Positions 5,234-11,382 of a DNA stretch of 64,000 bases are shown here, one piece after another. The position numbers were made by a program, and so were the translations under genes. The DNA is taken from positions 96,001 to 160,000 of the forward strand of contig JABCTZ010000003.1 in assembly GCA_018238155.1 (NCBI GenBank), written 5' to 3'. The notes under the pieces were generated by a model. That model had not been told where the DNA came from. It did no database searches and saw nothing but the letters and a program-made list of their open reading frames with translations. This stretch comes from Candidatus Heimdallarchaeota archaeon (lineage in GTDB: Archaea; Asgardarchaeota; Heimdallarchaeia; JABLTI01). Every line of letters begins with the position of its first letter. Position 1 is the stretch's first letter.

Positions 5234-5262
5234 CGCGAATTCAAATCGCGCTGGGCCCACCA
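5234..5262 (+). repeat. tRNA 3'-end fragment, type B (different tRNA)
   Basis: TTCAAAT-CGCGC-TGGGCCC-A-CCA. Confidence 0.8.
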
Positions 5263-5284
5263 AATTCTTACTTTTTATTTTATA

Positions 5285-6361
5285 TCAAGATGTTTCTTTA
5301 ATCCCATCTTTACCGTTTTTATACTTCTTTTCTTCAATGGTAATTTGTTTTTCGAGTTTATTCATTTGTTCAATTGCTAAATTTATATTATCAACTAAAA
5401 CTAATCCATTTGTAAGACACTCTTCAGCACACCATTTCCCTGCAATTATTAAGTAAGGTTTCATAAATTCGGTGATTTTCTTAATCTTTTGGATGTAATT
5501 GTTGATTTGTTTCTTAATTGCATTAAAGATTAATTCTCTACTTTTGTCCCAAATTAATAATGATACAAAAACAATACCTAGGATTATTTTCCATTCATTT
5601 GGTAATGCAGAAACAAAATCATAACCTTTCTTTAGAATATTGACAATTTTATCAATAAACGATATAATAAAAACTAATAATCCCCCAATTATTAATGCTC
5701 CCAATTCAAATGTTAAAATTCCTAATAAGGGGATACTTGTAGCAAGTATTACAAAAGAAGCTGATCCTTGTTGGTAAATACTAACTATTTCACAAGATTC
5801 CTTTGTACCTTTCCATGATTTTACACCATCAAGATCGAGCATATCCTTATCTGTTGTTATTATCGCATGTTTTCCTAATTTCAAGAAAAGAGCTACATAC
5901 TCTACATCTTCTTTATCTCTTTCAGCTATCATAGCTTCTGCTTTTTGATAAGCTACGTCATCATCTAAATTTTGATATGTGATCTTGGTTAAAAATTTGG
6001 AAGCTATAACTTCAATTTCTTTGGTATCTTTATTACAATATTCAGCGATACTTTCAATGTGTTTGTTAATCTCATTTTTTATTTTATCAGGTGCTACACC
6101 TAAAACAAATGGTGATTCAAGTAATTCCAATAGAAACGAATGATTATATTTTACATAGGCTCTAATATGCTTATTTAAAATGCTTGCATCGATAATGATT
6201 TGCAATGATATGTTTTGACCCATTTCCAAAATATTGTCTTCAAAAAAACCTTTGATTTGTTCCATAATACTTAGATCTATGTGTTTTACTATTTCCTTAA
6301 TTATCTCTTTTCTATTGTCAAATTTCTTTCTAATTCGTTCCCAATCCTTTTCGTTAAACAT
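5285..6361 (-). CDS. PIN-domain protein with C-terminal transmembrane helices
   Basis: IIIDASIL, DKEDVEYVAL and IITTDKD acidic PIN motifs; 2-3 hydrophobic segments after the domain. Confidence 0.7.
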   Translation of the reverse strand: MFNEKDWERIRKKFDNRKEIIKEIVKHIDLSIMEQIKGFFEDNILEMGQNISLQIIIDASILNKHIRAYVKYNHSFLLELLESPFVLGVAPDKIKNEINKHIESIAEYCNKDTKEIEVIASKFLTKITYQNLDDDVAYQKAEAMIAERDKEDVEYVALFLKLGKHAIITTDKDMLDLDGVKSWKGTKESCEIVSIYQQGSASFVILATSIPLLGILTFELGALIIGGLLVFIISFIDKIVNILKKGYDFVSALPNEWKIILGIVFVSLLIWDKSRELIFNAIKKQINNYIQKIKKITEFMKPYLIIAGKWCAEECLTNGLVLVDNINLAIEQMNKLEKQITIEEKKYKNGKDGIKETS

Positions 6362-6444
6362 TTTATCTCAAATCCTTTCCCAGTTTTTCTACACATTTCT
6401 AGCATAAAAAACCTTTCGAGATATTACATTCCATAAAATAAGTG

Positions 6445-6478
6445 TTGGTCACTGGTTCAAATCCTGTACAGCCCACCA
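6445..6478 (+). repeat. tRNA(CAU) 3'-end fragment, type A, intron-less
   Basis: TTGGTCACTGGTTCAAATCCTGTACAGCCCACCA, 33/34 identical to the spliced tRNA. Confidence 0.95.
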
Positions 6479-6497
6479 CTTCATATTTATGAAGAAA

Positions 6498-6746
6498 CTA
6501 AATATCTGAAATTATTTCTTTAATTTCTGCATGAGAGGGAATTCCCTCAAACTTTATTTCACCATCTACAACAATAGATGGTACTGCTTTAATGTTATAC
6601 TTCTTTGCTAATACAACAGCATCAGCTGATTGATTTAAATTATATTCAATGACCTGACATTTTTCACATATTGCTTCTTTTAGTTGTCTTAATGCTGTTT
6701 GGCAAAGAGAACAACCCGCTGTGAATATCTCAAATTTATGACCCAT
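6498..6746 (-). CDS. Glutaredoxin/thioredoxin-like protein
   Basis: CSLC active site, AVPSIVVDG motif. Confidence 0.85.
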   Translation of the reverse strand: MGHKFEIFTAGCSLCQTALRQLKEAICEKCQVIEYNLNQSADAVVLAKKYNIKAVPSIVVDGEIKFEGIPSHAEIKEIISDI

Positions 6747-6847
6747 TAGTGAAAGTCTCCATTATGCTTGGTTACTAAAAGTAACTAAGTTTACATAAGT
6801 ATTTAAATTGGTGGTTTCCAAGTAGAAACAAAGTATTCAGATGGAAA

Positions 6848-7225
6848 GTGATTCCGATTAAAGAGGAAAAAATAATTTGTCCATTATGCAATATTATGAA
6901 TATTGTTAGTAAAAAATGGTCTTTACTTATAGTTAATACAATAGGCAATACTGCAACAATTAGGTTTAGTGAAATAAAGAGAAATCTGCGAACGATAAAT
7001 TCCAAAGTTTTATCTGATAGATTAAAAGAGCTCGTACAAGCAGAGATCATAAACAGGAAATCAAAAGACTCAGTACCACCACATGTTGAATACTCTTTAA
7101 CTGATAAAGGAAAATCATTACGCAAAGCAATAATGCCACTTCTTGATTGGTTTTATTCCTACAATGAGAAAGGAAGAATAACCCCATGCGATATAGCATA
7201 TCAGATTGAAAGGGTTGAGAAATGA
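6848..7225 (+). CDS. HxlR-family winged-helix regulator
   Basis: CP...KKWSLLIV...RFSEIKR...LSDRLKEL...PPHVEYSLTDKG. Confidence 0.9.
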   Translation: MIPIKEEKIICPLCNIMNIVSKKWSLLIVNTIGNTATIRFSEIKRNLRTINSKVLSDRLKELVQAEIINRKSKDSVPPHVEYSLTDKGKSLRKAIMPLLDWFYSYNEKGRITPCDIAYQIERVEK

Positions 7226-9407: not shown

Positions 9408-9505
9408 AATTAACTAATCTACGAATCATTCCTAGTTGAATTATAATTCATTTTATATTTCAAACTAGTTTTTTTTTATTATTAGCTTTAATTTAATACA
9501 AGGTT

Positions 9506-9533
9506 GACTGCTCAAATCGTACTGGGCAAGCCA
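9506..9533 (+). repeat. Degenerate tRNA 3'-end fragment, type B
   Basis: cTCAAAT-CGtaC-TGGGCaa-g-CCA versus TTCAAAT-CGCGC-TGGGCCC-A-CCA. Confidence 0.6.
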
Positions 9534-9556
9534 GTTTACTTTTGATTCTCCAAAAG

Positions 9557-10150
9557 TCAAAAATCTGTCTTTAAAGAAAATCGTTTATCAATCCACTTCT
9601 TGATATCTTCTGCCGAATCAGATTCGGGATAATATCCTTTAGGATCACCATCTTTGTTTCTTGCTTCTTCGGCTTTATCAGAGACATCTTCAACTTTTAT
9701 CAAATTCCCTTCTTCAAAATCAAATTTTAGTACAGTTTGAAAAGAAGTAGGGCTTGGATATCCCATATGAACGTATTCCTCTAGAATAGGTTTATTACCT
9801 AATAACAATGATCCCGTGAATGGGAGTTTCAAGTATACATCTTTGTAATAATATCTGAAACCCAGACCACGTAATCCCCCTGGATTATATTCTTTTGTTA
9901 TCTTTAAAGGGGCAGTATTATTTATTATTGGAGGTTTTATTCCATCAGCTGTTCGTACCCAAAATCCTTCCATAAACAATTTATTATCCTTTATTTCATA
10001 TCTCATGATATACCCCCTCCAACAGCCTGTAGATGCAGACCTAGTTTTAATTTCAAACGTTTCCGCAGTATCTAATTCGGAGCCTGTGATTCCCACAATC
10101 ATTAATTGATTTCCTTCATAATAGAATAGATCTGAAGCTTGTTGTGTCAT
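9557..10150 (-). CDS. Hypothetical protein
   Basis: 197 aa ORF with a STGCWRGY motif; function unknown. Confidence 0.7.
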   Translation of the reverse strand: MTQQASDLFYYEGNQLMIVGITGSELDTAETFEIKTRSASTGCWRGYIMRYEIKDNKLFMEGFWVRTADGIKPPIINNTAPLKITKEYNPGGLRGLGFRYYYKDVYLKLPFTGSLLLGNKPILEEYVHMGYPSPTSFQTVLKFDFEEGNLIKVEDVSDKAEEARNKDGDPKGYYPESDSAEDIKKWIDKRFSLKTDF

Positions 10151-10208
10151 GATTTAATACCAGTTCTTATTTATGTTTAATTCTCCTTAAATTTACCGAT
10201 TTTCGCAG

Positions 10209-10231
10209 ATAAAACACGCACAGATTCACTA
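10209..10231 (+). repeat. Possible highly degenerate type B fragment
   Basis: ATAAAACACGCACAGATTCACTA versus the 11470 copy TTCAAATCGCGCTGGATTCACCA; lies 17 bp from the stop of the next minus-strand gene, like other copies. Confidence 0.35.
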
Positions 10232-10248
10232 GATTCTTTCTTTATTTC

Positions 10249-11382
10249 TCAGAAAATAAATATCTCTGTCAGAACATCTGTCCATGTTCTTCCAAATTTA
10301 GTATTGAGGTGTGCTATTGCTGATATGGTATTTTCTGATCCTTTTATTAGCAAATTAGTTGGAACCCAAACACAAATACTAACTGTTTTTTGTCCTTCAA
10401 AATTGTATATAGCTGTCCAAATTCCTTCTCCAATGATATGACTTGTATTATCCTTTATCTGCAGGTCAAAGCTTCTGAATTCTTGGTGCCAGTGCCCTGG
10501 ATTGTTAATTGTTACATGTATAATAATTGAAGTGGTATTAATTTCTCCATGCAAAAAGAAACTGTTTGAATAACCTTCTTTATAATTTACATCAACGACT
10601 CCAAAACTGCTTCCCCAATTAGCGTTGGTTGTATCAATAATCGGGACTAGAATAATGATGAAGAGAATGAATCCTGGCATTACAAAATGCTTTTGTTTCC
10701 TTATCTTTTTGAAGGTGATTGCAAAGAAATTGCGAACCCTCTTTTCTTTATCCTCCACCTTCTCTGCTTCCTTTTCCTCTTTACGTTTGAGTAAACCAAA
10801 TGTTGTTACCATTAGAAAAATAATTACTGCACCAACAAGTAGTATGTAACGTCCCATCTCTCCTTGGAAGTAATAGAATATCCCTCCAATGAATGGTATT
10901 TTTCCAATAATTTTACCCACAACCCTGCTTTCATGGATGTTCAATTCATCTACTCGTCCAGTAGGAATCTCAATTACAAAAACATTATTAGAATTCGGGT
11001 TGTCTCCTTTTGTAGAAAACCAAAAATCTCCTGTTTTATTGTCTTGATAAACTCTCGTTACTCGGTGGACTATCGGAATATTCTCTTCTGTGTGGTTGAT
11101 ATAATTAAAAACTATTACATCACCTACTTTTATTTCTGAAGAATCAACTCCTCGTACTATCAACATATCTTTTCGAATGTCGCCAAATTTTCCTCCTTTG
11201 TCAAGTCTTCTTGAACCGTAGTACGTAGGCTCCATTGATTCGGAAGTTACTACTACGAGAGGAGAATTTGTGTTAAGTGCTAAACAAAGTACTTGATTGA
11301 AACTTAGAATGCCTCCCACACAAATTATTATTAATGCACTAATTGCAATAACATCTTTCCGCCAGCTCGTTTTCTTAGACAT
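10249..11382 (-). CDS. Archaeal/ER-type signal peptidase I (S26B, Sec11-like) with C-terminal extension
   Basis: VVTSESMEP (Ser), IVHRV (His), TKGDN, VVGKI...IPFIG. Confidence 0.85.
   Translation of the reverse strand: MSKKTSWRKDVIAISALIIICVGGILSFNQVLCLALNTNSPLVVVTSESMEPTYYGSRRLDKGGKFGDIRKDMLIVRGVDSSEIKVGDVIVFNYINHTEENIPIVHRVTRVYQDNKTGDFWFSTKGDNPNSNNVFVIEIPTGRVDELNIHESRVVGKIIGKIPFIGGIFYYFQGEMGRYILLVGAVIIFLMVTTFGLLKRKEEKEAEKVEDKEKRVRNFFAITFKKIRKQKHFVMPGFILFIIILVPIIDTTNANWGSSFGVVDVNYKEGYSNSFFLHGEINTTSIIIHVTINNPGHWHQEFRSFDLQIKDNTSHIIGEGIWTAIYNFEGQKTVSICVWVPTNLLIKGSENTISAIAHLNTKFGRTWTDVLTEIFIF

Follow-up and report, generated by a model that had tools for sequence, protein, structure and literature searches.

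Short gaps between tRNA 3'-end repeats and gene ends in a cassette island of a Heimdallarchaeota archaeon match ordinary gene spacing

We analysed 64,000 nucleotides (nt) of DNA from a Heimdallarchaeota archaeon (assembly GCA_018238155.1, contig JABCTZ010000003.1, positions 96,001 to 160,000), hereafter called the window. Near its start a tRNA(CAU) gene is followed by a row of small genes that is divided by copies of a tRNA 3' end, an arrangement that we call the array. A previous reading of the same letters (the original prediction) had noted that minus-strand genes of this row stop 12-23 nt from the CCA end of a repeat and had taken this for a fixed geometry. We find that the short, regular gaps are real, yet they show only a packing as tight as that of any gene end in this genome and give no sign of a dedicated oriented or RNA-primed mechanism.

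The source genome has 4.08 Mb, about 32 % guanine plus cytosine (GC) and 42 tRNA genes, many of them with introns. At the head of the array, the tRNA(CAU) gene, which specifies a methionine tRNA, occupies positions 5013..5152 of the plus strand (Rfam tRNA, 42.3 bits over 5013-5149), with its CCA encoded at 5150-5152. It carries two insertions or introns, one of about 32 nt after the anticodon loop and one of about 30 nt within the T-loop. ARAGORN in bacterial mode found no tRNA in the window, and detection of this gene needed Rfam together with intron-tolerant ARAGORN; an Rfam scan in E-value mode over 4500-12500 gave chance matches only. The T-loop insertion (5099-5135) has a perfect hairpin and falls exactly inside the sequence that is repeated along the array. 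It is missing from the orthologues in the related genomes G007, G008 and G010 and is unchanged in metagenome X1, and it may render the resident tRNA copy a poor target for further integration.

In each repeat, the T-arm is followed by the acceptor 3' strand, the CCA and some 10 nt of pyrimidine trailer. All repeats lie on the strand of the tRNA gene. Two types occur. Type A is a copy of the spliced 3' end of the resident tRNA gene, with its private CCTGT allele, while type B corresponds to the 3' end that the orthologue of this tRNA(CAU) gene has in the congener G003. At 33 non-redundant junctions, positions +2 to +10 past the CCA are 73-100 % pyrimidine with hardly any G. The CCA is genomically encoded in 33 of the 42 tRNA genes, and because the same pyrimidine profile is found behind these 33 ordinary genes, the repeat really ends about 10 nt beyond the CCA. 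The trailer is probably the oligo-T terminator of the tRNA gene, judging from the known archaeal termination signal. Type-B repeats are present in several copies on single contigs in all ten congeners (10/10) and in the sister genus. No type-B repeat was found in other families of the class except for one match with three mismatches in G030, and an exact-match scan of IMG/VR with the type-B core gave no match. The type-A core matched IMG/VR once, in a sequence of different composition whose upstream part is unlike this tRNA gene, and this match was set aside as presumably unrelated.

The first unit of the array (5153-5262) is gene-free and ends in a type-B repeat (5240..5262, plus strand, T-loop to CCA) that matches the type-B consensus exactly; its module 5201-5261 also sits behind a HicAB cassette in metagenome X1. 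The open reading frame (ORF) 5024-5263, which reads through the tRNA, has no family match. Next comes a PIN_2-domain gene (5285..6361, minus strand; Pfam PF10130, E = 1.7e-10) with an 84 % DNA homologue behind a B repeat in G008. Past a type-A repeat (6456..6478, plus strand), a copy of the spliced tRNA 3' end, a thioredoxin-like gene (6498-6746, minus strand; Pfam PF13192) and an HxlR regulator (6848-7225, plus strand; Pfam PF01638) form a divergent pair that makes up one cassette, 6498..7225. Type-A repeats at 7387..7409 and 8104..8126 (both plus strand) enclose an S-adenosylmethionine-dependent methyltransferase gene (7422..8048, minus strand; Pfam Methyltransf_11), and behind the second of them lies a toxin-antitoxin cassette (8284..8810, minus strand) composed of hicA (8284-8508) and hicB (8505-8810; Pfam PF07927 and PF15919). 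The HicAB unit 8122-8845 is conserved as a whole in metagenome X1.

The repeats of the second half of the array are less well preserved. A type-A repeat at 9005..9027 (plus strand) has a decayed 3' end (…CCCATGAA) and precedes a CxxC-x17-CxxC zinc-finger gene (9213..9407, plus strand; Pfam PF23477, TIGR04272). This gene has two to four diverged copies per congener array, always co-directional with the tRNA, and one copy adjoins the conserved distal flank in G003, G007 and G008. A degenerate type-B repeat (9511..9533, plus strand), with 6 mismatches in 23 positions to the type-B core, marks a junction at 9533 that is conserved with G010 (repeat end 11723 in L015, gap 27). It is followed by a gene of 197 amino acids (aa) without family (9557..10150, minus strand), whose homologues are found in the G010 array and, in G009, outside arrays. 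From reading the sequence, a very degenerate repeat relic lies at 10209..10231 (plus strand; …GATTCACTA plus pyrimidine trailer); it has in common with the copy ending at 11497 only GATTCAC.A and the pyrimidine trailer, and the homology to contig G001:C228 starts at 10241. Past it stands a signal peptidase I-like membrane protein gene (10249..11382, minus strand; TIGR02228, E = 3e-16). The last recognisable repeat is a type-B variant at 11475..11497 (plus strand; …GGATTCACCA), and directly past it lies the gene for a GDCCVxC-domain (seleno)protein of 65 aa (11605-11802, plus strand; NF041374, E = 2e-25), which has a homologue within the G010 array. Except for the 197-aa gene, the genes that flank repeats are credible by Pfam and NCBIfam. 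Further on, a 262-aa ORF (12250-13038) matches triosephosphate isomerase only from profile position 55 (Pfam TIM 55-244 of 245). The conserved distal flank, recognised by tblastx synteny with G003, G007, G008 and G010, delimits the variable island in congeners; its start, with a 46-aa ORF, a 592-aa gene and an AP_endonuc_2 gene, lies at 13405..16696.

The spacing on which the original prediction was built proved exact when repeats and ORFs were mapped again. Five tRNA 3'-end copies have their CCA ends at 5262, 6478, 7409, 9533 and 10231. The minus-strand stop codons that follow them start at 5285, 6498, 7422, 9557 and 10249, which gives gaps of 22, 19, 12, 23 and 17 nt. The exception of hicA, with 157 nt (CCA 8126, stop 8284), was likewise reproduced, as was the existence of plus-strand cassette genes (zinc finger, HxlR and GDCCVxC). 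Two of the five repeats behind these short gaps are decayed, namely the copies ending at 9533 and 10231. The range of 12-23 nt was chosen post hoc and fails in the related arrays, where CCA-to-stop distances run from -22 to 58 nt. The conserved trailer of about 10 nt means that a gap will rarely fall below about 8 nt, and the 12-23 nt of the window are this trailer plus 2-13 nt.

How unusual the gaps appear depends on what they are compared with. If each of the six spacers received its repeat at a uniformly random position, the probability of finding at least five of six gaps at 23 nt or less would be about 0.0013. The array gaps are also shorter than those between bona fide tRNA genes of the same genome and a convergent stop, for which the median is about 65 nt (Mann-Whitney p = 2e-4). 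The genome-wide median spacing, from ORF-based gene calls, is 52 nt for convergent, 192 nt for divergent and 91 nt for tandem neighbours, implying a territory per gene of about 26 nt on the 3' side and about 96 nt on the 5' side. Taking half the convergent gap as reference (median 26 nt), we find no difference for the gaps of the window (p = 0.83). The gaps thus beat the naive nulls but not the appropriate one, half the convergent gap. The claim that they are tighter than the spacing between tRNA genes and convergent genes holds, yet they equal ordinary 3' gene territory, which comes close to the outcome on which the original prediction was to be given up. The short gap is seen five times in the window because a minus-strand gene happens to come first in six of its eight units.

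To see the geometry beyond the window, we mapped repeats and genes in 13 arrays or contigs, namely the window, eight congener contigs and four metagenome contigs, and counted 47 junctions after removal of those redundant in their right flank. The right-hand gene is on the minus strand at 20 of them and on the plus strand at 22 (15 and 20 without the window). Over all arrays, the distance from CCA to stop has a median of 20.5 nt and extremes of -22 and 157 nt. Plus-strand genes end a median of 44 nt ahead of the next T-loop, and about 15-20 nt of that distance is a tRNA-like 5' extension of the repeat. Where a start codon faces the unit border, the median spacer is 101 or 104 nt, depending on the side. 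These territories per gene match the genome-wide convergent, divergent and tandem medians. As a rule, then, the 3' end of a gene lies close against the unit border and its 5' end is set off by a promoter-sized spacer, in either orientation. A geometry that is fixed and oriented did not survive this comparison: both strands are used nearly equally, plus-strand genes end equally near the following repeat, and the gaps vary widely. Three minus-strand ORFs without a stop of their own (G008:C89 5908-6987 and 10385-11041, and G002:C246 118-1203) read into the repeat. They share one TGA as their stop, formed by the complement of the T-loop (gap -22); the repeat can thus supply a stop codon.

The content of the island changes between relatives in units that are bounded by the repeats. 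Between the tRNA gene and the conserved 592-aa gene the island measures about 3 kb in G007, 8 kb in the window, 20 kb in G003, 24 kb in G010 and 32 kb in G008, and the repeats divide it into units of 0.5-4 kb. Single cassettes recur in congeners at 75-95 % identity and in changed order, so that compact units of one or two genes are found reshuffled among relatives. Copies of the methyltransferase cassette with 87-95 % identity stand directly behind an A- or B-type repeat in four congeners (G004, G010, G002 and G006), each with its stop 8 nt past the CCA, and a copy in a fifth (G001) has no recognisable repeat alongside. Over the five genomes the homology of this cassette extends from the base after the CCA to about 50 nt upstream of the start codon, whatever repeat type precedes it. 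Presence and absence are unit-precise as well: a 687-nt indel between G003 and G008 corresponds to exactly one cassette and one repeat.

Logan contigs from four unrelated sediment, vent and seep metagenomes, each holding only parts of an array, add further joints. In metagenome X1 the tRNA gene is identical (0 mismatches over 5002-5227), and the joints fall at repeats: one repeat leads directly into the HicAB unit (6476 to 8122), and the zinc-finger unit adjoins a B repeat (5254 to 9029); the methyltransferase unit is there followed by a zinc-finger unit. Contigs from X2 and X3 diverge from the window at 6478, 6479 and 6483. A joint of 5262 to 11559 in X6 (side 23, intervening letters not determined) was too weak to count as an empty site. 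All nucleotide homologies from array to array are co-linear, with 0 inverted. The expectation that homology of cassettes elsewhere ends at the CCA junction is borne out by the methyltransferase in five genomes, by the breakpoints in X1-X3 and by the 687-nt indel. Such breakpoints at the CCA cannot locate the crossover, because all units have the repeat in common and any model that makes the repeat the site predicts them.

Some cassette genes are also found outside tRNA arrays. Window segments 6492-7235, 8273-8827 and 9572-10162 have homologues of 83-92 % identity in G004:C84, G005:C80 and G009:C57, and these homologies stop 6-16 nt beyond the coding region on both sides. The thioredoxin/HxlR homologue in G004:C84 (86 %) lies outside any array, with homology confined to the first of these segments. 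A second repeat, unrelated to tRNA, was noticed in this context. It is about 75 nt long (core CCCGAAMTGGWCTTCTAGMCCTTMAAGAAGAAGYG) and present in 27 copies in the genome, spaced 0.8-1 kb apart on low-GC contigs. We located it on the contigs C33 (1069-17192), C28, C31 and C9 of the source genome (G000) and at 346-11591 of L022 (G005:C80). In G005 a HicAB pair with 92 % identity to window 8273-8827 is flanked by it. As a candidate attC, this family gave no Rfam match and only weak single-stranded DNA folds. These findings suggest a second type of array that exchanges the same cargo with the tRNA array.

Taken together, we consider it likely that the island is made of compact, self-promoted cassettes at a tRNA attachment site and that its variable content is shuffled via the repeats. 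The region would be the end of a variable island nearest to its tRNA(CAU) gene, an island in which units of one or two genes without an integrase are inserted, lost and reshuffled by recombination at the co-oriented tRNA 3'-end copies. Site-specific recombination is the most economical reading of the mechanism, and the enzyme would most likely be a recombinase whose gene lies elsewhere. On its right side the recombination site would extend about 10 nt past the CCA. Genes that face a unit boundary with their 3' end stop within a few to about 30 nt of it, and those that face it with their 5' end keep about 100 nt for their own promoter.

Within such a site, two linkages bear on the position of the crossover. 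In three genomes the GGATCCACCA acceptor variant has the 677-aa cassette as its right-hand neighbour, and in two genomes the TTTAAATCG T-loop variant has the 243-aa cassette as its left-hand neighbour; together these linkages point to an exchange inside the repeat, as for tRNA integrases of the T-loop type. Several observations weigh against cassettes at a tRNA attachment site as we describe them. Exchange inside the repeat conflicts with two findings: one and the same methyltransferase cassette occurs behind repeats of either type, and B repeats stand behind an A-type gene. A search for the integrase family PF00589 gave no match in the window or on the array contigs of G003, G004, G008 and G010, and no type-A or type-B site was found in the regions round all PF00589 matches of four congeners and of the source genome, whose own matches are on C8 and C19 only. 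The SSV-type integrase PF16795 has no match in the genome. Arrays behind other tRNA genes of the genome (Ala, Pro and Leu) have bigger units and looser gaps. Finally, all the data are metagenome-assembled genomes (MAGs) or metagenome assemblies. Other searches were negative too: Pfam found no recombinase among the genes that flank the array, PHROGs and NCBIfam found no mobile-element hallmark in the cargo, and the scan of metagenomes returned five short contigs that add arrays but no integrase.

The absence of an integrase from the arrays would also be expected if they were debris, that is, if integrase-bearing elements or viruses had integrated serially at the tRNA gene and had been whittled down by deletion. 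Shuffling would then reflect homologous recombination between leftover fragments of 25-40 nt after DNA uptake, and the tight gaps would reflect compaction. Elements that target tRNA genes and carry integrases are documented in Heimdallarchaeum (PMC8813620), and other tRNA genes of this genome have displaced 3' fragments 4-21 kb apart. In addition, the repeat type (A or B) is not strictly tied to either neighbouring cassette, and the distal half of the island in G008, G003 and G010 is repeat-free and partly conserved. Nevertheless, the units steadily comprise one or two genes of 0.5-4 kb in every congener and in unrelated metagenomes, and random deletion would leave neither a repeat beside nearly every gene nor a clean indel of one unit. 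"Empty" units of repeat and trailer also exist (window 5153-5262 and 10252/10302 of the G008 array). On balance we regard decay of this kind as unlikely to be the main explanation. The original prediction had argued that erosion of large islands would not readily give such spacing. Erosion alone indeed fails to explain why homology breaks at the repeats; the spacing itself equals ordinary 3' territory in cassettes of mixed orientation. It is conceivable, if rather doubtful, that the island is instead a gene-capture platform at a tRNA-Met gene, served in trans by a recombinase unlike the classical integrases, possibly the conserved 351-aa Xer-like protein (C8:49852-50907) or the 524-aa integrase-like protein (C19:71085-72659), with cassettes also circulating through the second, non-tRNA repeat array. 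The gene-precise limits of homology would then reflect a dedicated cassette-forming step and not decay.

Two further explanations take the spacing itself as meaningful. The distance could be under selection if the antisense tRNA fragment or its trailer served as a 3'-end processing or termination signal of the minus-strand gene. Both the narrow distribution of gaps in the window and the three stop-less ORFs that end at the shared T-loop-complement TGA would fit such a role. However, over all arrays the gaps spread across the whole range from -22 to 157 nt and plus-strand cassettes lack such coupling. Moreover, archaeal termination uses an oligo-T signal, and the trailer, being purine-rich when read on the minus strand, is thus not an oligo-T terminator for these genes. 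We find a selected spacing very improbable. The original prediction had also proposed that the junctions arose by priming of complementary DNA (cDNA), with a reverse transcriptase extending the 3'-OH of a mature tRNA on the 3' end of an mRNA and so joining tRNA-CCA to the gene in antisense. The repeats lack the T-loop insertion of the resident gene and end in CCA, and some cassette homologues elsewhere are limited to the coding region plus or minus 6-16 nt, both of which would fit such an origin. The "spliced" repeats, however, need no RNA, because the orthologous tRNA genes in G008, G007 and G010 have an uninterrupted T-loop and most tRNA genes of the source genome encode their CCA. Priming of this kind would call for genes uniformly antisense to the tRNA fragment, for units free of promoter DNA and for a reverse transcriptase. 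Yet 22 of 42 cassettes run in the direction of the fragment, a promoter-sized stretch of about 100 nt upstream of the gene belongs to the units, one unit is the divergent thioredoxin/HxlR pair, and the genome (91 % complete) has no match to the reverse transcriptase family RVT_1. An origin by cDNA priming is already largely refuted, and we give it next to no credence.

Although nothing is special about the spacing, the check established how the units are built: the recombination site ends with the CCA and a terminator-like trailer of about 10 nt, and the cassettes are self-contained, promoter-bearing modules in either orientation. This provides a rule for annotating cassette borders and positions for primers across circular or empty-site junctions in Heimdallarchaeota. 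In this archaeal lineage, the one closest to eukaryotes, accessory genes (toxin-antitoxin, PIN, methyltransferase, redox and peptidase genes) are evidently traded as single-gene units with no integrase in cis. The exercise also removes an attractive story of an RNA-primed origin as unsupported.

Integrons are said to have been reported in archaeal MAGs by Ghaly et al. in 2022, and the original prediction had likened the array to the gene-then-attC layout of integron cassettes. The likeness lies in rows of compact, mostly single-gene cassettes parted by a short recombination site, in orders that differ between relatives and in a repeat that sometimes gives the stop codon. It does not extend to the machinery or the site. 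No IntI lies beside the array in the PF00589 search of the window and array contigs, and the site is a tRNA 3' end with trailer and not an attC hairpin, an imperfect palindrome that recombines as a folded single strand; Rfam recognised only tRNA. Integron cassettes are co-oriented and mostly promoterless, whereas those of the array are mixed in orientation and apparently self-promoted (start-facing gaps of about 100 nt), with no platform promoter.

Re-use of one tRNA site for arrays of integrated elements is established in bacteria and archaea (PMC4383910, the Islander model; PMC6563490, Thaumarchaeota); the sublocation classes of Williams 2002 are taken here as cited in PMC8813620 and PMC6563490. 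Tandem tRNA-targeted elements share with our array the intact tRNA gene, co-oriented displaced 3' fragments at unit borders, re-use of the site and variable content. Each of those elements encodes its integrase, whereas our units hold a single cargo gene or two, and genes for an integrase, for replication or for virions are absent from the whole array. A further difference is that two allelic repeat types are here mixed within one array. Tycheposons, which seed tRNA genomic islands in Prochlorococcus with partial tRNAs and plug-in cargo (bioRxiv 10.1101/2020.12.28.424599), are similar in their tRNA seed (one a tRNA-Met(CAU)), in the partial tRNAs that flank cargo, in a heterogeneity that peaks beside the tRNA and in their "plug-in" cassettes. 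Unlike our units, they carry a tyrosine (rarely serine) recombinase and often replication modules, neither of which was found in the array, and our units are much smaller and belong to an Asgard host. In Heimdallarchaeum, the mobile elements that integrate into tRNA genes are viruses, aloposons and CRISPR-Cas modules (PMC8813620). These belong to the same archaeal group and also use tRNA genes as integration sites, but they are large, and small cassette arrays are not described in PMC8813620. The array also differs from SSV-type integration, having no int(N) and int(C) halves that flank a unit (PF16795 has nothing in the genome). Our literature search found no description of such arrays in Asgard archaea. 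What is distinctive here is their scale and content. Their units comprise a single gene or two and no integrase; in size they recall integrons, but their site, orientation and platform do not.

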